Source: a bacterium (GTDB lineage: Bacteria > Bacteroidota > Ignavibacteria > UBA10030). From it: a DNA stretch of 26,620 nucleotides. The notes beneath the pieces are model-generated. The model was not told the origin of the DNA, searched no databases, and was given only the letters and a program-made list of their open reading frames with translations. Positions 1 through 12,875 of the stretch are shown in pieces (the first letter of the stretch is position 1; each line of letters opens with the position of its first letter). The translations under genes and the position numbers were made by a program. The stretch spans positions 1 through 26,620 of the forward strand of contig JAZDJN010000039.1 in NCBI GenBank assembly GCA_043803945.1, in the 5' to 3' direction.

Positions 1-551
1 TGCGCAAAACCATCGGAATGGAAGGACAAAAGAACTAAATCGAAACGACGTTACAGTTACGCTAAACTACTAAATATACGGGCTTGGAAGGTGGGTAAAA
101 ATAATTGTCGTTGGTGGGTAATTTTAATTGACGTTGATCAAGGGACAGATCTGTCAACCCTCCTTGAACTATGTTTTTAATTTGAGTACCTTTTTATCGC
201 CGACAACAATTGAATGGATTGGTTATGCCGATGAGCGAAGATCAATACATTCACCACGTACTAGTGCCGCGGGCTTTCTCTATCTGGCGCCGAGGACAAG
301 GACTAGGGCGAACGTCCGCCAGTTCCACAGAATACTCCAAGCCCGTCAGTCACAGTAAGTCGTTCACTGCAGCCGATGGATGTCCCTATTGTGATCGTGG
401 CGCACATGGTCCGATTTGTCTCTTCCATCTTCAAGTTTACTATCAATAACAGTAGCCTTGGGAGACGGCTGACCCGCCATGGTCTACAAGCAGCCCGTTC
501 GTGGTAGATGATGTATCAGCATGTGCAATATGGAATAAGGAGAATACCATC

Positions 552-2753
552 ATGAGACCTCTTCAGCATTGCATCATTACAATGATCGCTCTTACAGTAT
601 TGGATCATCAAGTCACAATCGCTCAGAAGGAATTAACACCTCAGGAGATATTTAAGAAGTATGACGATGCTGTCGTTATTGTCTTGGCTTACAGTGATGG
701 CCATGTCGTAGGACAGGGCAGCGGAGTCGTCATAAATGAAAAAGGCTGGATCGTCACGAATTATCATAACTATAAGAATGATCAGTTTAATGCAGATAGA
801 CTCGTGGTCAAACATCATGACAAGTTAGTCGAATTCACGGAAATAATAGGATTCAACGTTGAAAAGGACATCCTGATCCTAAGAATGAAAAAGGAAGATC
901 CAGGATTTCCTTATTTACCTCTTGGAGACAGTGACAAACTTGAGGTTGGTGAAAGAATTTGTGCGATAGGAAGTCCTCGTGGTTACGAAAACACGTTGTC
1001 TACCGGCATTATTAGTGGATTAAACAGAGTGATTGAGCATAGAAGGTTCAAGTATATCCAGATCACTGCATCGATTGATCATGGTAGCAGCGGCGGCGCA
1101 GTCGTCAATCGATATGGTGAACTTGTAGGAATCAGTACTCTGGGATATGAGTCAGCGGGTAGTCTATTCTTTGCTATACCTACAAATGATCTTGTGAAAA
1201 CCTACATAGATTCTTATGGGAGTGAAAAAGAAAGCAGTTACATTGATATTGCTCGGCTGGGCTATATTGCGTGGGTGAAGGGAAACTATGATCAAGCAAT
1301 TCTTTACTATGGCAAATACTTGGAGCGGTACAAGAATGATGCATCGGCATATGCTACGCGTGCAATAGCCTACTACGAGTTAAAGAAATATGAAGATGCC
1401 TTAGCCGATTGGATCAAAGTTATCGAGCTAAGGGGCGACAAAATCGTCAGTGATATTGATGCCCTGCTTTGTCGGGCTGATGTTTATATAGAATTGAAAA
1501 GATTTGATGAGGCGAAGAAAGATATTGACCGGGCGATCGAGCTTAAACCAAGATCATCAAGAAGTTATTATAAACGTGCAACCTTCTTTGCAGAATGCTT
1601 AAACAGATACGAAGACGCGATCAGAGATTTCAATATCTCTCTAGAATTAGACTCCAGTAGCGTCAGCTCATACAACAATCGTGGTTTAGTATATCGGGAA
1701 CTGGGCAGATTTGATGAGGCACTTAAGGACCTTAACAAAGCAATAGAAATACTTCCGAACCATTATGGTTCCCACGTGAATCGGGCCAATTTGTTTACAA
1801 GTATTGGCAGATATGAAAATGCTTTCGCTGACTATAAAAGAGCGATCGAGCTTAATCCAGGGCTACCCGATGCATACTACTGTCGTGCGGTGCTGTATGC
1901 CGAGTTACGGAGGCACCAAGAAGCGATAGAAGACTACAACAAAGGAATCGAATTGAATCCTTCGGAGTATGATTCTTTTTTTAATCGAGGAAATGAGTTT
2001 GCGAAGATAGGTAGATATGCCGAAGCCTTAAGAGATTATAATAGAGCCGTGGAACTAAAGAATGATAATTGGGCTATCTATTTCAACAGGGGCAATTCCC
2101 TGGCAAACCTAGGAAATGCTGAGGCAGCCCTGAGTGACTATAGCAAAGCAATCGAGATGAAACCGGATTTCATACCTACATATAGAAACCGGGCTGGCAT
2201 TTACAAACATTTGAAAAAATATGAAGATGCCCTTAATGATTACGCCACAGCGATCAAAATTAAGAAAGACGATTCCGAAGTGTATATGGATCGGGGCAAT
2301 ACGTACGCCGATTTGAACCAACATGAAGAAGCAATCAAAGATTTTAGTAAGGCCATTCAGTTACAGCCGGATTCTGCAAAAGCGTTTTCCAATCGTGCGA
2401 ACAGCTATGCAGCACTAAAGAGAAACCAAGAAGCAATCGATGACTACACTGCAGCAATAAAACTAAGACCATCTTATGCCGATGCTTATGTAAATAGAGG
2501 GAATGCATATGCCTTGACAGGAAGGTATGATGAATCTATCAAAGATCTTACCAAGGCTGTACAAATAGACTCAAACCTCGCTATTGCGTATTACTCGAGA
2601 GGTTTGACGTACCTGGACATGAATCAGTATCAACTTGCTCTCGAAGACTTCGAAAAGGCGAGCAAGCTGAGCAAATACTATGAATACAGATCGAAGACAT
2701 TAATTGATGATTTGAGAAAAAAGGTTAACGAAATCAATCAGCTCCGCAAATAG
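552..2753 (+). CDS. Exported trypsin-like (S1C/DegP-type fold) serine protease with about 14 C-terminal TPR repeats
   Basis: Motifs GSGVVI, TNYH (His), EKDILIL (Asp) and GSSGG (Ser) give a complete triad. They are followed by about 14 TPR units (Y-x-NRG...A-x-x-D-Y-x-x-AIEL). ATG at 552 has AAGGAG upstream and starts a signal-peptide-like stretch, so it is preferred over the GTG at 501. Confidence 0.9.
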   Translation: MRPLQHCIITMIALTVLDHQVTIAQKELTPQEIFKKYDDAVVIVLAYSDGHVVGQGSGVVINEKGWIVTNYHNYKNDQFNADRLVVKHHDKLVEFTEIIGFNVEKDILILRMKKEDPGFPYLPLGDSDKLEVGERICAIGSPRGYENTLSTGIISGLNRVIEHRRFKYIQITASIDHGSSGGAVVNRYGELVGISTLGYESAGSLFFAIPTNDLVKTYIDSYGSEKESSYIDIARLGYIAWVKGNYDQAILYYGKYLERYKNDASAYATRAIAYYELKKYEDALADWIKVIELRGDKIVSDIDALLCRADVYIELKRFDEAKKDIDRAIELKPRSSRSYYKRATFFAECLNRYEDAIRDFNISLELDSSSVSSYNNRGLVYRELGRFDEALKDLNKAIEILPNHYGSHVNRANLFTSIGRYENAFADYKRAIELNPGLPDAYYCRAVLYAELRRHQEAIEDYNKGIELNPSEYDSFFNRGNEFAKIGRYAEALRDYNRAVELKNDNWAIYFNRGNSLANLGNAEAALSDYSKAIEMKPDFIPTYRNRAGIYKHLKKYEDALNDYATAIKIKKDDSEVYMDRGNTYADLNQHEEAIKDFSKAIQLQPDSAKAFSNRANSYAALKRNQEAIDDYTAAIKLRPSYADAYVNRGNAYALTGRYDESIKDLTKAVQIDSNLAIAYYSRGLTYLDMNQYQLALEDFEKASKLSKYYEYRSKTLIDDLRKKVNEINQLRK

Positions 2754-2956
2754 CTCTGCCATCTGGTGATACTAATTGTGTGCATCTGTTTCATCTCTAT
2801 TCTCGGCTCGAACGGTCAGGGTGCACCTGACATGCAGATCCATCGTAATGAAGAACCAGTTTACGTCTTTGGGCATACCGGCAAGATGAAGCTGGGGTGG
2901 AACAGAAGCAAGGAAGAACGATTGACAATTCTCGCTCTCCAAAGAAAAAGATCCTA

Positions 2957-3073
2957 GCGCGGAAAGGCCCTTTCCCTTGGTCCCTGCGGTTCCCTTGTCG
3001 GCTTCGCACAACCTCGCTTCCCTCACTTGCCTCCATCGGCAAATACGATTGCGGGGCAGCTCTTGCTCCGCGC
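2957..3073. other. GC-rich cluster of short hairpins (structured non-coding element, family unknown)
   Basis: Stems GGAAAG/CTTTCC (2961-2975), TTGT/ACAA around GCTTCGC (2995-3011), TTGCC/GGCAA (3027-3042) and GCGGGGCAG/TTGCTCCGC (3051-3071). An alternative long-range pair is GCGCGGA (2957-2963) with TCCGCGC (3067-3073). Confidence 0.45.
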
Positions 3074-3541
3074 GTTGCACTTGGTCGCGGGATGCGTTTG
3101 CCGCTTTGATAAAGCATGTCCTGTAGCTCGTCAAAACTCCATCCACACATAAAATAGCAAATTCAAATTGAAATCGATACTTTTGTTCTGTTTCAATTAA
3201 CAGGGCAAAAGCTCACATGATCAGATCTCTCCTATCGTTCTGTCTCAGATTCCAATAATCAAGAACTCAACTCTAGCTGGAAATTGTGTATCTGAGAAAG
3301 CAACTGGAAATATTGACTTGCACATCCCCTCGACCTCGACTACGACCTTCTGATAGATTCTTCTTCACCATTTCCTTCTTAGAGAACAAACTGCCCTGCA
3401 CATATCATATTCGCACACTTCGCTCAATCCCATAACAGAATTCTTCTTCCGCACTATTCTCGGTTTACGTAACCGCTCCCTAATCGGGTTGTTCATAATG
3501 GAGTTCTAGCCCGGATAGACTTTTGAAGAGGGATATGTATG

Positions 3542-6500
3542 CTATTTCACCACCACGGTCTTCTTCGTCTCCACAAATTTGCCTGCCTGGAGGCGGTAGT
3601 AATAAATCCCGCTTGGGACATTGGCGTTCCATTGAACCTGGTGGTAACCCGCCTCTCTATATCCATCCACAAGTGTCGTCACGAGCTGACCGAGGACATT
3701 GAAGATTTTGAGCGTGACACTCGCAGCCTTCGGCAAGGCGTAGTTGATCATAGTGCTTGGGTTGAATGGATTCGGGTAGTTCTGGGAGAGACTAAACTGC
3801 CTAGGAATCGAGCTGTATTCTCCACTAATGGCCGTAATAGTCTTTGCAGTCCTGATTCTTATGTACGGTGCGCTGACGTCAAAGTTTCCCACACCATCAC
3901 TGCCAACGGCCCTGATCTGATAGACAGTGTCCATTGCTAATTGGCTAAGATTCCAAGACATCTGAAACGGGTAGCGGGTCACGGTTGAGTCAATTGATAT
4001 CCACGAGGGATTTAAGAAAGTATTTTCACTTCGATACTGGAATTCTACAGCGCAAAGGTCTGAGTCATTGCAGCTTATGGTGAACTTCAGTGGGATGGTT
4101 CGAATTATGTCTCCATCGCGGGGGCTTGTAATGGTTACTCTAGGCGCAGTATTGTCTACGTATACCAATAACGAGTCTGGGGAAAGATCTATATTGCTAA
4201 CCGTGTCTGTGGCGATTGCCCGCAAGTAGTAGAATCCATCAATCACTATTCCTGTATTCCACGTAACACCGAATGGTGCGCTCGAGTCTGGGATCGAGAT
4301 GGGTACCCAGTTAACGGCATTCAAGCTTCGTGACTGAAACGCGACAGCAAACACATCCGTGTCTTCTACTTTCGCGGTGAGTTTGACAACACCACGTATT
4401 CTGCTGTTGGAAGTTAGAGAAGTGATTCTTGCTTTTGGCGCGTGACCATCAATGTATCTGAAGGTGACTGAATCCATTGCGACGTTTCCCGCACTGTCGT
4501 TGACAGAAAGCCTTATCCAGTATGTTCCGGTCTGGAGCGGCAATGCTTTCCACGTAAAAAGGATCGAATCATGAACGGCAGTATTGCCCGCGAACAGAAC
4601 TGACCAGGATTGTCCCACTGAAACGGACCGATATTCCAGCGTGTACCGGTCAAGGTGATCGTCGTAGTCAGTCCCAAGAATCAGCAGGGTGTCCTTGATT
4701 CTCCCGTCGACGAGTAAGCCTTGCGAAGGCTGTATCAACCGAGCTATTGGCTTGGTTCTGTCCATTGTGATTATTCGTTGTGATTTTGCTATGGTTGTGG
4801 GATCAAAAAGTTTTGCAAGAGCGCGTGTGCCGTCATTACTCCTCGCTGTGGTAAAAATGTTTCCGGCATTATCAACGGCAATTGCAGGTTTGTTACCTAG
4901 AGGAGCATTGTTGGTAAGGTCCTTTCTCAGCAATTCGTTCCCATCAAGATCATAGACAATAAGATTTACCGATGTTCTAACGTAGACTAACTCTCCGTTT
5001 CTAACGTCCACATCAATTTGTCCACCACCGGGGGACTTCGACCAAAGAAAAGTTCCCAACGACGTAAACTTGCGGAGTACGCCAGTATTAACACCCGTGT
5101 ATATGCACCCGAATTTATCTGCAGCCACACCAGTGATATATTGATCATATGCAGGAACAGATTGAGCGACGGAGAAAAGTGGGGCTTGCCTACCTCCGAA
5201 GAACCATGCAACTCCTGGCGGAGGAGAACCCAAACCTGGCGTAGCACCAACATATACTGTGTCTGATAGTCCTGCACGGACGCAATTGCTGACTACGTCG
5301 CCGTGGATAAAGTCCTCAAGTGACCAAATGAATAAATTACCGCTGCTAAAACATTGGATTCTGCCTCCATTATACTGAGCCCAGTCGACAACATAGATCT
5401 TCCCGTAGCCGTCCACCGCTACCCCATTTGGACTATTAAGCTGACCATCGCCAGTCCCTTGGAATCCAAAAGACTGAACGAAGCTACCGGATTGATCAAA
5501 TATCGCGATCCTGTTTAAGTTGTGGTCGGCGCAATAGATTCTAGTCCCAACTCGATTAATCGCCATACCTGTGATGTTTTGAATCTGTCCGTTGCCCATC
5601 CCGCTAACCCCAAAAAAGGCTGGTTCATGAACAGGCTTGTCTCCAATGGCCATAAGGCTGGCAGTGTACTTCCCTTCCGGGACCATCAAACCCGTACTAT
5701 CTTTTCCATCCCACCGGATCGAATCTGGCCCAGGGTACCGTCTCTGATTTTTCAGGATGGTTCGGACGACAATTCCATTCTTGTCCCTCATATCTAATGT
5801 GACGATAGCACTATCCGACAGCACATAGCTAATAACACACAGCGTTGATTGTCCAACGAACTCTGAAGAGACTGCGAAGTTTGTAATTTGAAGTGGCTGA
5901 TACTCAGGAACGCTTCCAACCTTTAGTATGATCGAACCAGAACCTGTAACAAACCCGGCTTTCAGTGCGGTCGCCGTATAATTCGTGCAACCAGCAGGGA
6001 GGGGGGATTGTTCTGGATACCTATATGTTCCTGTCGATTGCCGAAACTGTAAGGCACTGAATTCCGAGTAGTTCGTGTAGGATGAACTTATTGCAAGCCT
6101 ATCAATATCTATGAGATTGTTTGCATTATCTCTGCACGTGATGAGAAATACTGGCTGATCGCCAGGACTGTAAGAATTGGGATCCTTGTCTGGCCGTACA
6201 CTTACTGCGATCTGATTTTGCTGAACGACGATGGGCCCATCAATATTGTCGGGCCAATGCCCCGGGAGACTAACAGTGCTGTTATCGATGTTTGCATAGA
6301 ATCTGAATTTGTGCTGCCCCACGCCAAGCGAAGCAGCAGAATACTTGAAAAGCGCTCCTGTGCCATATGATCCGCTAACCTTGTTCATCGCCGGTGAAAG
6401 AGTTTCATCTATCACAACAACTACTTTTGTTGGAGTCTTGCCGCTCGGCGAAGTATAGGTCACGTAATAATCGAATGTTGTCGAGGCAGATCCAGTTTGT

Positions 6501-8728
6501 GGCTCAACATGCCCGTTTGAAAGAGGTAAGCCCAATCCGCTTACAGCAGGACCACCACTTGCTGAGTTACGTATGTCTCCGATACGAGTCTGAAAAACAA
6601 AATAGAACTGGTGCGACCCCTGTGATAGAAAGTCGGAATATGAGAATGTTGCTCCTATTGCAGGCGTGCCTGATGTAAGAGCTAACTCGTGGGCGGCATT
6701 GTCAATATAGATCCTGCCGCTTGAAGGACCGGCTCCCAATGGATCCCTGTACTGAACCGACCATGTAAATCGTGTTGTCTCATCTCCGCTAGTCGGATTA
6801 ACCGATCCCCCAGACAACGTGGGTCTATCAGCAATCGTCAGGTGCACTGGTATAGATTGAGTACGTACACCAGCTGTGCCGTAAACCAAAATCGAATAGT
6901 CACCACGGGGTGTTGATGGGAGACATGATACGCTCAAAGTTGAGGAATCGCCTGGTGACACTGGATTACGAAGAAAACTCATTGAGATGGAGGTTTCAGA
7001 AGACTGCAACTTTGTCGAAATCGTAACCGGACTGGCAAAGTTGTTGATTGGCCTAACGCCGATTTGTATGGAACCACTTTGACCGGGTGTTAGATAAAGC
7101 AAATTAGGATTCGTGGTGAGATAATAACCATTTGAGCCACTAGTAACTTTCATTTTTACATCAATATTGCGCATACCTCCAGTCGAGCTGCGAACAACTA
7201 TGATTCCTCGATATTCTCCTGGTATGACAGAATTCGGAATTGTCACGGTCGCTTCAAATCGAGAATTCTGGGAACCACTTGGCACTTTGGAAATAGCAGT
7301 TGGTGAAAAACGGAACAACGCAATCGAGTCGGGGCAGTGAGGAAAGTATATACCACCCGAGAATGAAATATTCTGTAAATCATTCACGCCACCTTCACCA
7401 AGACTAAATGCCTGAACAACTGTTGCACCCTGTGGTACATCCTCAAGGTACCAAGTAGCCGGCTGTGGATTCAGAAATTGCGGTAGATTCAAGCCAATGC
7501 TTTCTTCGTACTTTCCATCAGAATCGAAATCGATGGCAATGCGACCACCAAAGGCGAATTTGTCGATGTTAATCACGCTCATGGGTAAATCGAAAGATGC
7601 TATGCCTACGTTTTTAGTATCTGTGAGTTGTGGAATTGTTAAGCTAAAAGGTAGATACGATGTGTCGACTTTTATTAGCTGAGTCCTCCCATCATTGTCG
7701 ATAAGTACTATCCTTCCATTTACTTGAAATGAATGACTTGAGCTTGGATTGAAAAAGAACATCTGTAGTTTGTTGTGCAAGAACCTTTGGCTTTCGTCTT
7801 GCTCAAATGATTGATTGAATTCATAGAACAATGTGTCTGCTCCATTTCTTGCCACCCACATCCTTGCAGCCTCTGGAGTGCCCGGAAAAGGTTCAACGGT
7901 TAAGCTATACCCCGTTGGAAATCTGCGGTGAGCGTACTTGTTCAATAGACCTTCCTGAAGCGCGGACAATGGAAGAACGTGCTCGTCACTGAGTTGGTAT
8001 TTGGACCAGTAAGTACAAAAGGTGTAGGCGGTCCAGTTCTGTTCGAAACGCTCTGCCGCGCTCAGACCAGCCCAGACATATAAGGACGAGACAACAAGCC
8101 CCGACATCATCGGCGCGATTCCCGCTATATTCTCAATCGTTATTGCTTGGCTCGTTAACTCTGCAATATGGATCGCTGCGCGTATGAAATCCGGCGAGTA
8201 GGATGCAAGATCCTTTACTAAGTCGAAGCACACTTGAGGCACTTTAAAGAGAATTTTGGCCTTGGTCTGATTATCCTTTGCCGCATCGTATTCGGAGCAA
8301 AGGGCAGAGAGTTCCTGAACATCGGAATAGATAACATATACACCGGTAAAAGGGCGTATCGCTGGTAATTGTTGTTCAAGAAAGGGTACGATCAGCTGAT
8401 AGGTTGCATAATCCTGGGCGGTATTGAAGAGGAGAGAGGATTTTTGCTGGATAAGATTATTAAGAACGCCAACTACTCTCTGAGCTTTGGCGATATCATC
8501 TTCCGAGGCAAGCACATCTCCCGGGTTACGTGCAACACGACTATCCCTATAGATTCTATCTCTGTTCAAAGCTTGATCGTCTGAGTTTGCAACCACAGTC
8601 GAAACAATTTTATCATGAGGAACAACCGCCATGTTCGCATCGATCGTTTGACTCTGCAATGTCATTACCAACACAAGTGTGCTTAGCCCAACCACATCAA
8701 GTCGATATACACATTTTTGAAGGGACAT
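3542..8728 (-). CDS. Large modular T9SS-secreted protein: unknown helical N-domain, Ig-like domains, FlgD-Ig, NHL beta-propeller, bacterial Ig repeats, T9SS type-A sorting domain
   Basis: ORF of 1735 aa (1728 aa from the ATG at 8728, which has AAAGGAG 10 nt upstream). The C-terminus FSLSQNYPNPFNPST...GIYYYRLQAG...KKTVVVK is a T9SS sorting domain. Also seen: NHL motif GTGDGQLNSPNGVAVDGYGKIYVVD, FlgD motif WDGKDSTG..VPEGKY, and three D-x-x-x-P...I repeats. Confidence 0.88.
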   Translation of the reverse strand: MSLQKCVYRLDVVGLSTLVLVMTLQSQTIDANMAVVPHDKIVSTVVANSDDQALNRDRIYRDSRVARNPGDVLASEDDIAKAQRVVGVLNNLIQQKSSLLFNTAQDYATYQLIVPFLEQQLPAIRPFTGVYVIYSDVQELSALCSEYDAAKDNQTKAKILFKVPQVCFDLVKDLASYSPDFIRAAIHIAELTSQAITIENIAGIAPMMSGLVVSSLYVWAGLSAAERFEQNWTAYTFCTYWSKYQLSDEHVLPLSALQEGLLNKYAHRRFPTGYSLTVEPFPGTPEAARMWVARNGADTLFYEFNQSFEQDESQRFLHNKLQMFFFNPSSSHSFQVNGRIVLIDNDGRTQLIKVDTSYLPFSLTIPQLTDTKNVGIASFDLPMSVINIDKFAFGGRIAIDFDSDGKYEESIGLNLPQFLNPQPATWYLEDVPQGATVVQAFSLGEGGVNDLQNISFSGGIYFPHCPDSIALFRFSPTAISKVPSGSQNSRFEATVTIPNSVIPGEYRGIIVVRSSTGGMRNIDVKMKVTSGSNGYYLTTNPNLLYLTPGQSGSIQIGVRPINNFASPVTISTKLQSSETSISMSFLRNPVSPGDSSTLSVSCLPSTPRGDYSILVYGTAGVRTQSIPVHLTIADRPTLSGGSVNPTSGDETTRFTWSVQYRDPLGAGPSSGRIYIDNAAHELALTSGTPAIGATFSYSDFLSQGSHQFYFVFQTRIGDIRNSASGGPAVSGLGLPLSNGHVEPQTGSASTTFDYYVTYTSPSGKTPTKVVVVIDETLSPAMNKVSGSYGTGALFKYSAASLGVGQHKFRFYANIDNSTVSLPGHWPDNIDGPIVVQQNQIAVSVRPDKDPNSYSPGDQPVFLITCRDNANNLIDIDRLAISSSYTNYSEFSALQFRQSTGTYRYPEQSPLPAGCTNYTATALKAGFVTGSGSIILKVGSVPEYQPLQITNFAVSSEFVGQSTLCVISYVLSDSAIVTLDMRDKNGIVVRTILKNQRRYPGPDSIRWDGKDSTGLMVPEGKYTASLMAIGDKPVHEPAFFGVSGMGNGQIQNITGMAINRVGTRIYCADHNLNRIAIFDQSGSFVQSFGFQGTGDGQLNSPNGVAVDGYGKIYVVDWAQYNGGRIQCFSSGNLFIWSLEDFIHGDVVSNCVRAGLSDTVYVGATPGLGSPPPGVAWFFGGRQAPLFSVAQSVPAYDQYITGVAADKFGCIYTGVNTGVLRKFTSLGTFLWSKSPGGGQIDVDVRNGELVYVRTSVNLIVYDLDGNELLRKDLTNNAPLGNKPAIAVDNAGNIFTTARSNDGTRALAKLFDPTTIAKSQRIITMDRTKPIARLIQPSQGLLVDGRIKDTLLILGTDYDDHLDRYTLEYRSVSVGQSWSVLFAGNTAVHDSILFTWKALPLQTGTYWIRLSVNDSAGNVAMDSVTFRYIDGHAPKARITSLTSNSRIRGVVKLTAKVEDTDVFAVAFQSRSLNAVNWVPISIPDSSAPFGVTWNTGIVIDGFYYLRAIATDTVSNIDLSPDSLLVYVDNTAPRVTITSPRDGDIIRTIPLKFTISCNDSDLCAVEFQYRSENTFLNPSWISIDSTVTRYPFQMSWNLSQLAMDTVYQIRAVGSDGVGNFDVSAPYIRIRTAKTITAISGEYSSIPRQFSLSQNYPNPFNPSTMINYALPKAASVTLKIFNVLGQLVTTLVDGYREAGYHQVQWNANVPSGIYYYRLQAGKFVETKKTVVVK

Positions 8729-8800
8729 GATTCTTAAGCTCCTTTCCATAGGGCAAGGGATACATTATTGATCTGAGCGCTAAGATGTTGGCCCCACGCT

Positions 8801-8846
8801 AAAAACGAAAAACCTCTTTCATCGTATTCAACGAATCCAGAGGCTT
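8801..8846 (-). terminator. Intrinsic terminator-like hairpin just upstream of the large T9SS gene
   Basis: Minus strand reads AAGCCTCT-ggattcgttgaatacgatgaa-AGAGGTTT followed by TTCGTTTTT. The G-U pair works only in the minus orientation. Confidence 0.6.
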
Positions 8847-8868
8847 CTCAATCAAATCGATAACTTTA

Positions 8869-8886
8869 TTTGTAGCAGGAGCGGCA
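8869..8886 (-). pseudogene. Possible degenerate tRNA-fMet 3' tail
   Basis: Minus strand TGCCGCTCCTGCTACAAA resembles the tRNA-fMet end CCTGCTCCCGCTAC and is followed by a terminator. The T-loop is not preserved. Confidence 0.3.
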
Positions 8887-9106
8887 CGGTTCACTCCTTC
8901 CTGGTTTAAGTTAGTAATGTTTAAGAGTAATGTCAATTTGATTTCGATGGTGAGAGAATATGAAAGACAAGGATGGTGGTGAAAACAATCCAGGTGAAAT
9001 GACAGAATTACATCTTCGATGTGACATGGTAATTCTGGAGTAGACCAAACCTCACTACTAAATTACCTATCAGGCACACCTCACACTTTTACTGAGATCA
9101 CCCAAG

Positions 9107-9148
9107 ATAAACTAAAGACCCTCACCGATTTACAGCGATGAGGGTCTT
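9107..9148 (-). terminator. Terminator-like hairpin downstream of the tRNA 3' fragment
   Basis: Perfect 10-bp inverted repeat AAGACCCTCA (9115-9124) / TGAGGGTCTT (9139-9148). It extends to 13 bp with a G-U pair on the minus strand and is followed by TAGTTTATCTT. Confidence 0.65.
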
Positions 9149-9160
9149 CTTTAGAACTTG

Positions 9161-9190
9161 AAGCGGGGGCAGGACTTGAACCTGCAACCT
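9161..9190 (-). pseudogene. tRNA 3' fragment (initiator tRNA-Met-like), probable att-site remnant
   Basis: Minus strand reads AGGTT (variable loop), GCAGG-TTCAAGT-CCTGC (perfect T-arm), CCCCGCT (fMet-type acceptor 3' strand). There is no anticodon arm, D-arm or 5' acceptor strand upstream. Confidence 0.75.
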
Positions 9191-9547
9191 TATGGCATTC
9201 ATTTCTAGATCTGCAAGTCCTGTCGTGCGGAATAATTAAAAAGCACTTTCAGAAAAAAGCACACGGCTCCATTCTGGACAGGTTGGGTAAACATTATGGT
9301 CCTTGTAAGGGAATTCTATTGGACCTCGACATCGGAATTGATAGCCTATCTTGTTTGGGCTGTTCAAGATGAATTTCGTTATTGATCTGAGATGAGATAA
9401 TTCGCGCTTGGTTCAAATTCCCGTGGAATGCTCAATGGAGATCCCACTTGCATGTTCAGTTCTTTTCAACTATAGCAGCGGAATGTCTCACCGGAGAGAC
9501 AATTGGCAGATGAAGGAGCGTTGACCTACTAAAACATTGAGGGTAAA

Positions 9548-10693
9548 TTATAAGTTTTCAAGAGGTGGCTGCTCTGGACTCACCTCTCCATTCCGAAACT
9601 TCTTTACACTGATGTTTGATACCATCGATCTCAGGTGTTCCGGCAATGCCTTCGCATATACCATGGTAGTCTCTATGTCTTTATGACCAAGGGCATCTTT
9701 TATGTCCATCAATTCTGCGCCAGCTTTCCGATGTATAAATGCATTCGTATGACGCAGACAATGAAGGTGAACATTTTCCGGCAAACCTGCTTTCTTCGCA
9801 TACCGCTTGAATCCCTTAGTCGCCCTGTCCTTCGACATATCGAATATCTTTTCTCCTACTTTCTTAGGCTTGTATGTAGCACGAATTTCATCCAGCAACT
9901 CTTTCAACTCTGCGGATACAGGAAATCCTCTTCCAATCTTTGTCTTCGTTCGATCAATCAATAGAAATCCAACATCTTGCCTATAATCACTCCACGTCAA
10001 TTCTAATGCTTCAGACTTTCTGCAACCAGTTAATAAAAGAAACGATATATAGAACTCTAACAGTTTTGATCTGACTTTTTTCTTGTCAGCTCTAATGGCC
10101 TTGAATAAAGCAATCAGATCTTGGTCGTCCAATGATCGTGGTGTTAACTTGTCAACTGGCAACTGTTTCATCCCGGCAAATACATTTTTATCAAGATATT
10201 TTGGATCTCTACGCAGTGCCCAATTAAATGCAGTGCGTAAACTCCTCATTCTCATATTCACTGTTGCCGGAGATAATCGCTTTTTAATCCCATGACTGTC
10301 ACGTAATTCAGCTTGACGGTTAACCAGATACGCTCTATGACGTGTTGCCATGTTCTCATCAATGGTCCGCAAGGCGATATTCCCGCCAACCCGATCTCTG
10401 AATTCATTCAATGCTTTTATGTCAATCAGCACCGATCCATGACACTTCGTTATCTTGGCATGTGTTTCTAAATACTCTTCTATGAAATCATTAAATGAAA
10501 TATTTGTCTCTTCGATATCTTCGAGATGAAATTTCCCGCGTGCAATGTTGCCGCGAATGTCATCTAATATCTGATTTGCTAATTGCTTTTTGTTTGTTCC
10601 AGTCGAACGAACGAATCGTCTACCACGAAATCTAAAATCGACGTAATAGACATATTCTCCCGTACCCATAAATCGTTTACGAAGGCATGACAT
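9548..10693 (-). CDS. Tyrosine recombinase / phage-type integrase
   Basis: Full catalytic set: LLTGCRKSE (R), KTK (K), HCLRHT (HxxR), LGH (H), TTMVY (Y). The N-terminus YYVDFRFRGRRFVRSTGT looks like an arm-binding beta-sheet, followed by a core-binding region (LSPATVN). ATG at 10693 has GGGAG upstream (381 aa) and is preferred over the TTG at 10735. Confidence 0.95.
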   Translation of the reverse strand: MSCLRKRFMGTGEYVYYVDFRFRGRRFVRSTGTNKKQLANQILDDIRGNIARGKFHLEDIEETNISFNDFIEEYLETHAKITKCHGSVLIDIKALNEFRDRVGGNIALRTIDENMATRHRAYLVNRQAELRDSHGIKKRLSPATVNMRMRSLRTAFNWALRRDPKYLDKNVFAGMKQLPVDKLTPRSLDDQDLIALFKAIRADKKKVRSKLLEFYISFLLLTGCRKSEALELTWSDYRQDVGFLLIDRTKTKIGRGFPVSAELKELLDEIRATYKPKKVGEKIFDMSKDRATKGFKRYAKKAGLPENVHLHCLRHTNAFIHRKAGAELMDIKDALGHKDIETTMVYAKALPEHLRSMVSNISVKKFRNGEVSPEQPPLENL

Positions 10694-10823
10694 AAAGTTC
10701 TCCCTCTGATAGTTACAATGCGGTAACTTCAACAAAAAATTGGTGAATTAGTTTTTACCAGAAGCTCAAGAACCCAATGTTTATCGGTGTCTTACGAATG
10801 GCTTGAATATTATTTTTGAAGAA

Positions 10824-10862
10824 TCCGGAGGCTGTCGCTCTATCCAACTGAGCTACGGGCGC
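10824..10862 (-). tRNA. tRNA-Arg(CCG), 5' half only (interrupted after anticodon-loop position 38)
   Basis: Minus strand reads GCGCCCG TA GCTC AGTTGGATA GAGC G ACAGC CT-CCG-GA: acceptor 5' strand, perfect D-arm, anticodon stem 5' strand and 7-nt loop. The next bases are TTCTTCAAAAAT instead of the GCTGT needed to close the stem. Confidence 0.92.
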
Positions 10863-10875
10863 AATAATTTTAATG

Positions 10876-10904
10876 AATATATCTACTTTTTTGCAGAGTT
10901 TCAA
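10876..10904 (-). promoter_or_regulatory. Sigma70-type promoter of the tRNA-Arg gene
   Basis: TTGAAA (10904-10899), 17 bp spacer, TATATT (10881-10876), ending 13 nt before tRNA position 1. Confidence 0.75.
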
Positions 10905-10976
10905 TCCTGGGAAACAACGAAAGGAAATTCTGAATTGAATTTTTTAATCCTACGACAGCCGAATGAGCTGCTTCTA

Positions 10977-11723
10977 TTACCTGTTCGCCTGATCCTCCTC
11001 TGGAATGGGGGCGAGCGAAATCTCGTCGAGCTTTTTTGTTATGATGTTCGAAAGATTTCTGATAGAATTCACACCTGAACCAATAACTTCAATATCATAT
11101 TTCAATTGTCCAAAGACCTCTCCCAGGAGCTCCTTTCCCTCCTGACTGATGGCACTCTGAATCTTCTCTTCATAGGATTTCAAATTCCGGGACACATCGG
11201 AAATACTTTTATCAACGAGCAACCCCACCGAGCTCACTGTTTCGAACAATTCCTCCAACGCATCGATCTCTTTTTGTTTTTCTTTTAGCAATTGCTCCCG
11301 TGCTTCCTGTTTAATCGATTTCTTTCTGAGAAGAAAACGTTCATAGGAACTATGAATGACAAAAGCGAGCCTATCGATATCAAGCTGATCCTTGCGTATA
11401 TAATCATAGACGCCAAGCTTCAATGCTTCCATTGCAACCGCTTCCGAGCCAGCCCCGGTAATCATGATGACCGGTGTCTGGATGAGTTGTTCCTGCAGCC
11501 ATCGAAGGACTTCGATTCCCGACATATCCGGCATCATGTAATCAAGAAGAATAACATCGAATTGTTCCTTCTTCAATTCCGCGATGGCACTTTCTCCACA
11601 GTCGACCGAGTGTGTAATGAATTCTTTCGTAATCTTCAGTGCCATCTCAATGCTTAACCGGAAGGCGTCTTCATCATCGACAATGAGAACGTTCAGCAAA
11701 CGACGTTTTGCTAACGGTACCAT
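10977..11723 (-). CDS. Response regulator (REC domain plus helical C-terminal region)
   Basis: VLIVDDE acidic pocket, LLDYMMP phospho-Asp, MITG Thr and DYIRK Lys. The ~110 aa helical tail has no recognisable DNA-binding domain. Confidence 0.88.
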   Translation of the reverse strand: MVPLAKRRLLNVLIVDDEDAFRLSIEMALKITKEFITHSVDCGESAIAELKKEQFDVILLDYMMPDMSGIEVLRWLQEQLIQTPVIMITGAGSEAVAMEALKLGVYDYIRKDQLDIDRLAFVIHSSYERFLLRKKSIKQEAREQLLKEKQKEIDALEELFETVSSVGLLVDKSISDVSRNLKSYEEKIQSAISQEGKELLGEVFGQLKYDIEVIGSGVNSIRNLSNIITKKLDEISLAPIPEEDQANR

Positions 11724-11804: not shown

Positions 11805-12875
11805 TTATGAGGTTTTCAATCTCGCCATAGCAGATTGCTGGAGGACTTTTCGTGCAACTGCAAACACCTCCTCATACGAAATCTGTACCATACAATCGAA
11901 TGTCTTTATCGGACATTTATCTCCTCCATGGAGCGAACAAGGCCGACAACCGAGATTTTGCACCTGGACTACACTATCAAACGGACCTGCTGGGCTAAAG
12001 CCGAATTGGGGAACAGTAGCTCCAAAAATGGTCACAACCGGCGTCCCCATAGCCACCGCAATATGAGTTGGGGCACTATCATTGGACACCAGGAGTTTGC
12101 AGCGCCGAATCAACTCAGCAGATTGCAGCAAGGATAATTTTCCCGCGGTAGTATAGACTTTCGATGAGCCACTAAGAGCATGGATGGCTAGACATAATTC
12201 TATATCCTCATTACCCCCTATCAGAACAATTTCGAATCCAGCATCATCGAAATTGACGGCAAGCGATGCGAATCGCTCCTTCAGCCAACGTTTTGTATTC
12301 CATACTGAGCCTGGTGCAAGAGCAATCATCTTTTTCGTATTTCCAATTTCAAGCTCAAATAGCAGTTTATCTACTTTCCTCGCATCCTCATTTGTGGGAT
12401 ACACTCTTGGGAGCACTTTCTCAGAGGCAGAGATCCCAAGCGGTTTCACCAAGGTGAGATTTCTCTCAATTTCATGAAGAATCCATCGGTGTGGCACAGT
12501 CTCCGTCATAAGGAGACGTCCGGCGCTTCGATCAAATCCAATGCGGATAGGAATACGTGCAAGCCAAGCGAGAAGAGCGCTTCGTATTGATCGATGAGGA
12601 ATAATTGCGGCATCATAGTTTTTTCGCCGCAGCGTTGCTGCTAAGCGAAACAGGTTTGTTACCCCTTTTTCTCTTCCACGCTTGTCATAGATAATAACTG
12701 ATTGAATATCTGGATGGTTATTGCAAATTGTCGCGGCTCCCGGGATGACAACAATATCAATTTGGACATTCGGTCGCTGTTGTTTCAATCTCTGGATGAG
12801 TGGTAATGTCAAAACTACATCGCCAAGAAATGCCGTTTGAATAATGATAACATGTTGAATATCGCTTTTGATCAT
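11805..12875 (-). CDS. waaF: LPS heptosyltransferase II-like glycosyltransferase (GT9)
   Basis: Motifs QTAFLGDVVLTLP, RIGFD, HEIERNL, APGSVWNTKRW, VSNDSAPTHIAVAMGTPVVTIFG and CRPC...CP...CM. The exact GT9 paralog is uncertain. Confidence 0.85.
   Translation of the reverse strand: MIKSDIQHVIIIQTAFLGDVVLTLPLIQRLKQQRPNVQIDIVVIPGAATICNNHPDIQSVIIYDKRGREKGVTNLFRLAATLRRKNYDAAIIPHRSIRSALLAWLARIPIRIGFDRSAGRLLMTETVPHRWILHEIERNLTLVKPLGISASEKVLPRVYPTNEDARKVDKLLFELEIGNTKKMIALAPGSVWNTKRWLKERFASLAVNFDDAGFEIVLIGGNEDIELCLAIHALSGSSKVYTTAGKLSLLQSAELIRRCKLLVSNDSAPTHIAVAMGTPVVTIFGATVPQFGFSPAGPFDSVVQVQNLGCRPCSLHGGDKCPIKTFDCMVQISYEEVFAVARKVLQQSAMARLKTS

Follow-up and report, generated by a model that had tools for sequence, protein, structure and literature searches.

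The single-copy tRNA-Arg(CCG) gene of this bacterium appears to be occupied by a genomic island that was integrated by its own tyrosine integrase and has the 5' half of the tRNA in its attachment site, a reading to which we assign a probability of about 0.85. In the mechanism we propose, the crossover would take place within the 7-nt anticodon loop, and attP would contain the tRNA 5' half instead of the usual 3' part. Integration would then leave, at the junction in the DNA analysed here (attL), the host promoter and the host 5' half with its loop joined to the integrase-side arm and the integrase gene, that is, a dead half-gene, and would create at the other junction (attR), on contig C4, an intact tRNA-Arg(CCG) composed of the far-end arm, the island-borne 5' half and loop, and then the host 3' half and downstream gene. 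The window, meaning the whole stretch that was analysed (26,620 nt), is the entire contig C39 of a 118-contig draft genome, and the far junction sits on another contig. The observations that carry this reading are the two junctions themselves, the ancestral synteny of their flanks, homologous arms in a sister island, and further islands with the same layout.

The minus strand of the window holds at 10862-10824 a perfect 39-nt 5' half of tRNA-Arg(CCG), in which the acceptor strand, the D arm, the 5' strand of the anticodon stem and the loop CTCCGGA (anticodon CCG; 10824-10830, the presumed crossover region) follow in order, and whose last base is the end of that loop. The letters after the loop (TTCTTC...) do not continue the tRNA. 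When compared with positions 1-39 of the intact tRNA-Arg(CCG) of the genome, the half was identical at 39 of 39 positions (BLAST E 1.2e-13). Since neither ARAGORN nor Rfam called a tRNA in the window, the half is truly truncated; Rfam at E up to 10 on 10600-11000 also left it unmatched and returned two chance CRISPR-repeat matches only. The 3' half was absent from the window, its sole genomic copy being on C4. On the promoter side, the host's original tRNA-Arg(CCG) gene has a promoter-like site, TTGAAA-17-TATATT (10876-10904, minus strand; a 10/12 consensus match), which ends 13 nt before the tRNA start and now points towards the orphan half and, behind it, the integrase gene. The promoter scan of the attL region, which reports consensus matches only, gave two sites against 1.7 expected from shuffles. 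The stretch between the half and the integrase gene (10694-10823, minus strand), which we assign to the integrase-side arm of the island, has a homologous stretch beside a tRNA-Gly(TCC) half on contig C36; it carries the inverted word pair GTTACC...GTAAC at 10712-10727, which may be an arm-type integrase site, and no terminator-like site was found on its minus strand. The host tRNA promoter would be expected to read through the orphan half into the integrase gene, as in the conventional geometry of ICEKp1. Base composition does not separate island from host on C39 (44.4% vs 44.7% GC).

The integrase gene starts 130 nt past the anticodon loop and runs on the minus strand from an ATG at 10693 to a stop at 9548 (381 aa); an upstream TTG at 10735 would give 395 aa. 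The protein matched Phage_integrase (PF00589, E 9.6e-25) and, over residues 80-187 of the 395-aa frame, the SAM-like core-binding domain Phage_int_SAM_5 (PF13102, E 2.8e-09), and its best match among solved structures was HP1 integrase (1aih, E 2.4e-10). In that alignment the catalytic residues R, HxxR, H and Y were conserved, TGCRKSE, HCLRHT, LGHK and VYA of the integrase being paired with TGARWSE, HVLRHT, LGHS and RYA of HP1 integrase, so that the protein combines the C-terminal catalytic residues of a tyrosine recombinase with an N-terminal core-binding domain. HP1 integrase reportedly targets a tRNA anticodon loop. The sequence-only reading of this DNA had described a flawless 5' half that stops with the final base of the loop, a catalytically complete tyrosine integrase about 130 bp further on and no matching 3' half in the window, and all of this was borne out. 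The nearest homologue of the integrase (39% identical) was found in relative G004, where it is conventional, with a tRNA-Ala anticodon loop as target and an orphan 3' piece comprising positions 33-74. A more distant clade in the integrase tree was conventional in 16 of 16 members, and still more distant homologues had an intact tRNA upstream in 8 of 14 genome loci and 11 of 16 metagenome loci scanned. Scans of genome and metagenome contigs for close homologues, full-length or long partial, gave at most 34% identity, and neither a same-species empty site nor a second copy of this island was found.

Genome-wide, ARAGORN called 47 tRNAs, exactly one of which was Arg(CCG): an intact gene on the complementary strand of C4 (8713-8787). 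Its 5' 39 nt are identical to the half in the window, and the upstream flanks of the two differ. Downstream of the C4 tRNA lies a host TPR gene, and upstream lies island-like DNA with AbiEi, a split AbiEii, a DrmD-like SNF2 helicase, a type IIG RM/DrmMI-like enzyme, a DruE-like helicase, nucleases, a PDC-S01 ATPase and ORFs without family; this defence-gene cluster would be cargo of the Arg(CCG) island. The displaced piece, which has host genes on its upstream side, is the 5' part of the tRNA, and the 5' part of the intact tRNA is contiguous with island-like DNA, as in islands of the reversed class. The claim that the tRNA had been split without being rebuilt, and was thus a candidate for control by recombination, was overturned by this intact gene at the far junction. 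The far junction was to be looked for to the left on the same contig; there is no such contig left of the window, which is the whole of C39, although the full tRNA whose presence was in question does exist, on C4. The possibility that the tRNA is restored at the far end by a promoter and 5' half supplied by the island was supported, with a consensus match standing for the promoter, and the geometry had rightly been called the reverse of the usual one, though it belongs to a known minority class.

The far-end arm on C4 contains a promoter-like TTGACA-17-TATATT (11/12) about 150-185 nt 5' of the tRNA (157-185 nt as measured, with TATATT at C4 8944-8949), which would imply a long leader. The same site occurs in the sister-island arm on contig C10, in both cases as a consensus match only, and promoter-like site counts were near the shuffle expectation in every scan; run on other islands, the scan gave one weak site for that of relative G030 and none for that of G004. 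Transcription of the rebuilt tRNA from an island-borne promoter is thus proposed on the strength of a consensus match. The arm also holds three AATGTTACC words, and ATGTTACC occurs three times in 20 kb of C4, always within 72 nt upstream of the tRNA (0.40 expected in shuffles; three reached in 2 of 200). GTTAC-type words of this kind would be arm-type sites for the integrase.

As attL and attR are on separate contigs, with the half and the integrase on C39 and the intact tRNA at C4 8713-8787, we compared the loci around tRNA-Arg-like matches in relatives. An orthologue of the C4 TPR gene was present in 22 of the 29 loci, and 13 of those 22 also had, upstream, an orthologue of the heptosyltransferase gene of the window; in relatives these two genes flank one intact tRNA-Arg(CCG). 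The flanks that are now on C39 and C4 thus once lay on either side of a single tRNA. Synteny via a response regulator gene was discarded as a marker, since it has many paralogues and tRNA-Arg(CCG) adjoined it in none of 19 relatives' loci. No chain of contig-end overlaps joining C39 to C4 was found: C39 overlaps nothing at its start, and C4 shares an end overlap of 141 nt with C83 alone, a dead end. The joining of attL with attR thus has ancestral synteny and arm homology with the sister island as its basis, from which we infer that both junctions would be the ends of one island, with the order and orientation on one replicon that Islander asks of a tRNA island (an intact tDNA and a cognate fragment pointing the same way, an integrase gene between the two). 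Among 14 retrieved places with short BLAST matches in relatives resembling the 5' half, eight were parts of intact Arg tRNAs and one was an orphan cut by a contig end. Four sequencing runs (Logan contigs, 4-10% of sampled words) showed no joints when searched against the window, and the depth at 10824-10863 stems from tRNAs of other organisms; stretches left uncovered carry no information.

The layout is not confined to this tRNA. On C36 of the same genome, a tRNA-Gly(TCC) 5' half likewise breaks off at the anticodon loop; beyond it come the GTTACC..GTAAC pair again and the start of a like integrase, and on C10 the DNA upstream of the intact tRNA-Gly(TCC) was 71.5% identical over 186 nt to the far-end arm on C4 (E 3.6e-20). 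A complete reversed island of about 6.6 kb in tRNA-Leu(TAG) was found on a single contig of this genome, C48. Complete reversed islands on single contigs were also found in G030 (Arg(TCT); 14,834 bp, with a 56-nt repeat of 100% identity) and G004 (Arg(ACG); 12,241 bp), both of which contain GTTAC(C/A) words, and others were found in G094 (Val), G062 (Arg(TCT)), G080 (Ala) and G096 (Gln), bringing the complete reversed islands with an intact far-end tRNA to seven in all. For a related integrase family, 30 loci in the order were scanned, and a tRNA 5' portion that was not called as a tRNA lay 78-124 nt upstream of the integrase in 17, compared with an intact tRNA in five. The far end confirmed the reversed layout by an intact tRNA in seven of these 17 loci, three had none within 20 kb, and the far end was not assessable in the remaining seven. 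Integrase homologues beside tRNA 5' halves, which had been proposed as a check, were accordingly found both in the sister island on C36 and in 17 of 30 related-family loci. The G004 genome also holds a decayed second attL-like copy, so that tandem arrays occur in such islands.

The interior of the island is less simple than its junctions. Beyond the integrase stop lies a non-coding spacer of 356 nt (9192-9547, minus strand); no copy of it was found in any fetched locus of other genomes, and elsewhere in this genome the region gave only a weak match spanning the integrase stop (74% over 78 nt, C35, E 1.7e-4). The spacer ends at an orphan 3' portion (positions 43-72) of an initiator-type tRNA-Met (9162-9191, minus strand), 30 of 30 identical to the tRNA-fMet at C32 21163-21236, and this is followed by a diverged copy of the region downstream of that tRNA, including a terminator-like hairpin (8800-9161, minus strand; 69.7% identity to C32 21340-21718 over 396 nt, E 3e-45). 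Because a tRNA-fMet 3' fragment and an fMet-type flank are found 356 nt after the integrase, the island interior is thus composite or rearranged, and the fragment may mark an inner boundary, may be captured DNA, or may be left over from a rearrangement. Positions 1-8799, which include a T9SS-sorted surface protein of 1735 aa (3542-8749, minus strand) and a trypsin-TPR protein (501-2753, plus strand), are on the island side of attL and, in view of the fragment, could be either island or host DNA. The reversed tRNA geometry could accordingly be true and yet the integrase segment (9192-10823) and the far end on C4 stem from different islands, brought side by side when islands accreted in tandem or when a rearrangement took in a tRNA-fMet island as well, with window positions 1-9161 being host DNA. 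The position of the fragment and its flank right after the integrase, the single tRNA-fMet in each relative that matched and the occurrence of tandem arrays, as in G004, favour such a history, in which the C4 defence cluster may come from another layer of the array. Against it, though not decisively, the arms on C39 and C4 match the two arms of the sister island, as a single attP predicts, and the T9SS and trypsin-TPR genes were beside tRNA-fMet in 0 of 29 relatives' loci; this too is not decisive. The genes downstream on C32 adjoined tRNA-fMet in none of these loci, the gene upstream on C32 adjoined tRNA-fMet in 4 of 29 loci, and the non-coding tRNA-fMet flanks were too diverged to tell which copy is native. 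Overall we regard this mixed origin as possible but doubtful, and integration of one island, with both junctions as its ends, as the better account.

The other explanations we consider very improbable. The tRNA might exist only after excision, the island thereby toggling CGG decoding, as would fit the lack of a tRNA call at attL and the single-copy status of tRNA-Arg(CCG); that single copy is nevertheless intact while the island is integrated. It sits at the C4 junction between island DNA on its 5' side and host DNA on its 3' side, and in the seven complete islands that share this layout the far-end tRNA is likewise intact. A non-functional target gene during integration, the hallmark of such a switch, was thus not seen, and an intact C4 tRNA is the very result that had been named beforehand as refuting it. 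Under the proposed mechanism, CGG decoding persists while the island is integrated and would persist once it is excised, leaving nothing to switch. Hardly any weight is left, either, for a knock-out of the kind found in tRNA-dependent lysogeny by some mycobacteriophages, with the host tRNA destroyed and CGG read by another tRNA. The genome does have tRNA-Arg(TCG) and tRNA-Arg(ACG), both called by ARAGORN, and PMC10865867 documents a system without any rebuilding, where a whole tRNA comes with the phage; here, by contrast, an island-borne 5' half continues in register into the host 3' half and no separate whole gene replaces the tRNA. Because the tRNA is rebuilt on C4, no compensation is needed, which makes this option unnecessary. 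Marginally less improbable, and still very unlikely, is one-off damage, either the loss of the 3' tRNA copy from attL of a conventional island or a chimeric assembly at 10823/10824. The nearest integrase homologue is conventional and the assembly is a draft of 118 contigs, both of which are in line with damage. A deletion at attL would not, however, account for the second junction, where a complete tRNA is preceded by island DNA, and the break falls exactly at the loop end, likewise in the sister Gly(TCC) island. Moreover, X2 record 9, from an independent run (24 differences in 554 nt), extends from the integrase across 10823/10824 and 30 letters into the half, one letter short of the 31-letter spanning criterion. 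It had also been argued that conventional homologues would make this a one-off deletion; the G004 homologue is conventional, yet the sister island and many islands of the related family are reversed.

The Arg(CCG) island belongs to a known but uncommon reversed class, and no tRNA is lost or switched. Zhao and Williams are said to have described in 2002 genomic islands that displace a 5' tDNA fragment. The Islander report (PMC4383910) gives in its table a reversed target gene orientation for 159 of 3,919 candidate islands, and Krupovic et al. 2019 provides a precedent. In common with this class, the island has a tyrosine integrase and a tRNA target, carries the 5' part, leaves an orphan 5' piece upstream and has the rebuilt gene at its far end, with island DNA where the promoter must lie. 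What differs here is that three tRNA genes of one genome are involved and that the layout dominates a related integrase family in the order; a keyword literature search yielded no paper on a reversed-geometry integrase family in this bacterial group. HP1-type integrases, which use conventional class 'A' sites in Islander, resemble the present one in that HP1 is its best structure match and the crossover here would lie in the anticodon loop, but the identity block here takes in the loop and everything 5' of it in the tRNA, not the 3' side. For ICEKp1, PMC13023037 places the integrase gene directly 3' of the tRNA promoter when integrated and of a promoter at the element end when circular. The geometry of the Arg(CCG) island would give the same two situations; the tRNA beside the integrase is intact in ICEKp1, whereas a transcript here would pass a dead half-tRNA, and the element-end promoter here would also have to serve the rebuilt tRNA. 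The tRNA-dependent lysogeny of actinobacteriophages likewise involves integration into a tRNA gene and an integrase-side junction that is not a working tRNA, but according to PMC10865867 the tRNA is rebuilt at neither junction and a separate phage tRNA compensates, whereas here it is rebuilt at attR.

The half-tRNA in the window is thus an ordinary attachment scar of an uncommon type, which removes a false lead. Where a draft genome or MAG shows an orphan 5' tRNA half beside an integrase, the half should be taken as the attL of a reversed island whose far junction is perhaps on another contig, and tools that seek only 3' fragments would miss such islands. More tentatively, as an extension that we think somewhat more apt to fail than to hold, reversed, promoter-donating integration could be the default of a large tyrosine-integrase clade in this order, with a modular attP in which an exchangeable tRNA 5' portion is set between a conserved promoter/arm module and an integrase-side arm. 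Each insertion would then be a reciprocal promoter swap, in which the island drives a single-copy tRNA (Arg-CCG, Gly-TCC and Leu-TAG in this genome) and the host tRNA promoter drives the integrase, and the clade would have changed at least five times from one geometry, reversed or conventional, to the other. If the family pattern holds, the order offers many natural pairings of a reversed with a conventional integrase that share a fold and have similar arm words. These could serve to probe what decides which half of the symmetric tRNA stem-loop is carried by attP, and could also show how the host is affected when its single-copy tRNAs are transcribed from island-borne promoters.

The minus strand of the window at 10862-10824 follows a tRNA-Arg(CCG) from its acceptor strand through the D arm and 5' anticodon stem to the loop CTCCGGA, after which it runs on as TTCTTCAAAAAT..., making pairing back impossible. 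ARAGORN called zero tRNAs over the window, and Rfam returned no tRNA in it at gathering scores and none around the half-tRNA site at E up to 10, confirming the 5' half truncated at the loop that the sequence-only reading had described. The catalytically complete tyrosine integrase that it had placed about 130 bp further on was also borne out: the minus-strand ORF (ATG at 10693, stop at 9548) starts 130 nt after the anticodon loop, contains Phage_integrase and Phage_int_SAM_5 domains, and aligns with the HP1 integrase (1aih, E 2.4e-10) at the catalytic R, HxxR, H and Y. In four public runs (Logan contigs, covering small shares of the stretch), neither a joint nor a signal of misassembly was seen. 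One X2 contig crosses 10823/10824 from within the integrase with 24 differences over 554 nt, reaching 30 letters into the half, one short of the spanning criterion, and is compatible with either attL (the window half) or attP.

Since the window is one whole 26.6-kb contig (C39) of a 5.54-Mb draft in 118 contigs, the far junction was looked for on other contigs. The genome-wide check for CCG and UCG tRNAs, performed with ARAGORN, returned 47 tRNAs, with a single tRNA-Arg(CCG), intact on contig C4 (c[8713,8787]); the other Arg tRNAs called in the genome read TCG, ACG, CCT and, in two copies, TCT. Positions 1-39 of the C4 gene are identical to the window half (39/39), while the sequences upstream of the two are unrelated. 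The only tRNA-Arg(CCG) 3' half in the genome lies in this C4 gene. Downstream of the C4 tRNA are a TPR_21-type gene and then SpoIIE/GAF genes; upstream are AbiEi, AbiEii in two frames and ORFs without a family.

The tRNA-Arg(CCG) was used as a query against 40 relatives, all of other genera, and the 29 loci returned were probed with the proteins of both contigs. An orthologue of the C4 TPR gene lay downstream of the tRNA at 22 of the 29 loci, and 13 of these 22 also had, within 1.5 kb upstream, an orthologue of the heptosyltransferase encoded at 11805-12875 of the window; the response regulator beside the half fell outside the conserved synteny at the relatives' loci searched. The shared synteny thus indicates that the order heptosyltransferase, tRNA-Arg(CCG), TPR gene is ancestral. 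Judged from the sequences, the insert in the source genome, which runs from TTCTTC through the integrase to the AbiE genes and a 5' half, is one that entered at the end of the anticodon loop; the direct repeat flanking it is the 5' half itself, 39 nt (40 with one upstream T). We assign a probability of about 0.85 to the reading that the tRNA junctions are those of a reversed island, with an orphan 5' fragment beside the integrase and the tRNA rebuilt at the far end. The sequence-only interpretation was thus supported in part: its headline of a recombination-controlled tRNA is refuted by the intact gene on C4, whereas its option of a rebuild at the far end with the island's own 5' half holds, given the C4 tRNA and the ancestral synteny.

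A different arrangement was seen at four relatives' tRNA-Arg(CCG) loci (L040 in G005, L037 in G014, L027 in G013 and L046 in G008), where partial second copies adjoin the intact tRNA and have GC-rich palindromic sequence inserted in the anticodon stem and/or T-loop. Two of these loci, those of G005 and G014, also have an ORF of 93-96 aa with a GIY-YIG domain (Pfam E 5e-16 and 3.6e-11) between the tRNA copies. The arrangement, which may represent a small mobile unit that targets tRNAs, does not occur at the tRNA-Arg(CCG) locus of the source genome.

A census of partial tRNA copies over the whole source genome showed a sister of this island. Contig C36 carries positions 1-41 of a tRNA-Gly(TCC), a 5' half also ending at the anticodon loop, followed by GTTACC...GTAAC and the first codons of an integrase resembling that of the window; no long ORF follows this start, so the integrase is truncated. 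The same GTTACC...GTAAC pair occurs in the integrase-side arm of the window at 10712-10727. The intact tRNA-Gly(TCC) is on contig C10, upstream of ribosomal-protein genes, and over the 186 nt that precede it the sequence matches the far-end arm on C4 with 71.5% identity (E 3.6e-20). Both far-end arms contain TTGACA-17-TATATT (11/12 consensus) and AATGTTACC-type words, and all three copies of ATGTTACC in a 20-kb stretch of C4 fall within 72 nt upstream of the tRNA (0.40 copies expected; 2 of 200 shuffles reached three). By these matches the Arg(CCG) and Gly(TCC) islands are sisters that have both arms in common, whereas the tRNA half enclosed by the arms is not the same, as would be predicted by a modular attP composed of arm, tRNA 5' half with loop, arm and integrase. 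Because the arms are shared with the sister island, they also tie the C39 and C4 junctions together.

How far the island extends depends on a second tRNA fragment. At 9162-9191 (minus strand), 356 nt after the integrase stop, the window has 30 nt that match positions 43-72 of the genome's only initiator-type tRNA-Met, on contig C32 (21163-21718 with flank), without a mismatch. A terminator hairpin and about 370 nt follow, which share 69.7% identity with the downstream flank of the C32 tRNA; in the window this flank occupies 8800-9161. The integrase segment, 9192-10823, is thereby bounded by the tRNA-Arg 5' half and the tRNA-fMet 3' piece. Captured DNA would explain this fragment, as would a nested or tandem island or a rearrangement between two islands; it may mark an inner island boundary or be the trace of a rearrangement. 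For this reason we do not claim window 1-9161 and the C4 defence cluster for the island of the integrase, and we consider the chances even that both share one island with it.

That cluster lies at C4 20000-42300 (L002, L003), upstream of the rebuilt tRNA. It includes a type IIG RM/DrmMI-like enzyme (1611 aa), a DrmD-like SNF2 helicase adjoined by a short ORF that resembles the DrmD C-terminus, a DruE-like helicase with an MZB domain (1801 aa), a PDC-S01-like ATPase, a DUF6577 protein and two nucleases of PD-(D/E)XK type, a REase-ARP nuclease and a PD-(D/E)XK protein. The cluster mixes DISARM-like and Druantia-like parts and fits no single canonical system. Nearer the tRNA, at C4 9560-11150 (L001), the AbiEi antitoxin gene is followed by AbiEii, which is divided between overlapping frames of 137 aa and 130 aa that each match one half of the Pfam model, and the toxin gene is probably frameshifted. 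At the intact tRNA-fMet (C32 21060-21440, L195), two small hairpin-containing inserts flank the tRNA, and each repeats a short piece of a tRNA end, CGCGGGGTG ahead of the 5' end and CCCCCGCTAC beyond the 3' end; they look like miniature insertions aimed at tRNA ends. At the threshold used, tRNA-fMet matched once each in 33 of 41 genomes searched, the source genome included; in about ten relatives no more than a few hundred bases separate the single gene from the end of its contig, and the locus may border an assembly-breaking repeat.

The reversed layout recurs in relatives. Two orphan matches from the relatives' tRNA search were tRNA 5' portions breaking in the T-loop, directly upstream of integrases 29-32% identical to that of the window, and the two islands (genomes G030 and G004) are each complete on one contig. 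In G030, a 56-nt repeat (100% identical) containing positions 1-55 of tRNA-Arg(TCT) is spaced at 14,834 bp, with the integrase immediately inward of the orphan copy and the tRNA intact at the opposite end; G004 has the same layout at tRNA-Arg(ACG), where the copies are spaced at 12,241 bp. Another attL-like copy, now decayed, is found 1.5 kb upstream of this G004 island (C1 543385-543489; L163 17386-17489); it consists of a tRNA-Arg-like 5' portion and an integrase-side arm, lacks an integrase, and suggests tandem accretion of reversed islands. The G030 integrase had matches (E <= 1e-30) in 103 of 201 searched genomes of the order, and the 30 loci returned were sorted by the DNA upstream of the integrase. 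This was a 5' tRNA-like portion uncalled by ARAGORN, 78-124 nt away, at 17 loci, an intact tRNA at five, an intact tRNA probably cut by a contig end at one and a 3'-type match at one; four had no match and two lacked room. Downstream DNA was available for 11 of the 17 loci, four of them short; among the seven with the full 20 kb, four had a repeat, identical at 100%, in which the distant copy forms the 5' part of a complete tRNA gene (Val, 6.7 kb; Arg(TCT), 18.5 kb; Ala, 8.5 kb; Gln, 6.8 kb) and three had no such repeat. Overall, 7 of the 17 loci were confirmed as reversed. The source genome has a complete island of this family at tRNA-Leu(TAG) (C48 10990-17655, L196; 6.6 kb). Its orphan 5' portion comprises positions 1-67 of the 83 in the tRNA, which is intact at the far end; the island encodes an integrase of 353 aa and a Lin1244_N-domain protein, has small ORFs besides, and carries TTGCTAAT words in both arms.

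The suggested comparison with integrase homologues gave a mixed answer. The closest homologue, in G004 (39% identity), lies about 80 nt after an intact tRNA-Ala(CGC), and a different contig carries positions 33-74 of that tRNA, at 100% identity, as an orphan 3' piece; this is conventional geometry with a crossover in the anticodon loop. More distant homologues were preceded by an intact tRNA-Ser or tRNA-Gln in the same orientation at 8 of 14 genome and 11 of 16 metagenome loci scanned. A quick maximum-likelihood tree was built from 46 integrases, and geometry labels were available for 40 (L188, with internal stops, and the truncated L191 were omitted). In it a distant clade of 16 was conventional throughout, the window and G004 tRNA-Ala integrases paired (SH-aLRT 99), and a 28-member family comprised 17 reversed, five conventional and six unlabelled members. 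The labels required six changes, at least five of them forced by starred branches; since kin share labels and the tree is unrooted, these changes show lability, not direction.

As for the mechanism, we infer the crossover, the promoter exchange and the transcription of the rebuilt tRNA alike. The attB core would be the anticodon stem-loop ACAGC-CTCCGGA-GCTGT, and strand exchange in the 7-nt loop would join the integrase-side arm to the host 5' half and the island 5' half to the host 3' half. A host promoter-like site at 10904-10876 (TTGAAA-17-TATATT, 10/12 consensus) faces the orphan half and the integrase, and a scan of the stretch between the site and the integrase found no terminator-like site. 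On excision the island's own promoter-like site would take the place of the host site before the integrase, and in the integrated state it would be the only candidate promoter of the rebuilt tRNA. Such consensus matches arise at about the chance rate, and the scans gave one weak site in the G030 island and none in that of G004. The proposed exchange resembles the promoter switching reported for ICEKp1 (PMC13023037).

Displacement of the 5' part of tRNA genes is known, and Krupovic et al. 2019 call it "considerably less frequent", citing Zhao & Williams 2002 and archaeal cases; the Islander table (PMC4383910) lists 159 islands with a 5' fragment versus 3,760 with a 3' fragment. Since such islands are already described and listed there, the window locus is not a new kind but belongs to a known, uncommon one. 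A literature search returned no description of the frequency or modularity of the reversed layout in this order, which is weak evidence of absence. Overall, what is new may be how frequent and how modular the reversed layout is in this order.
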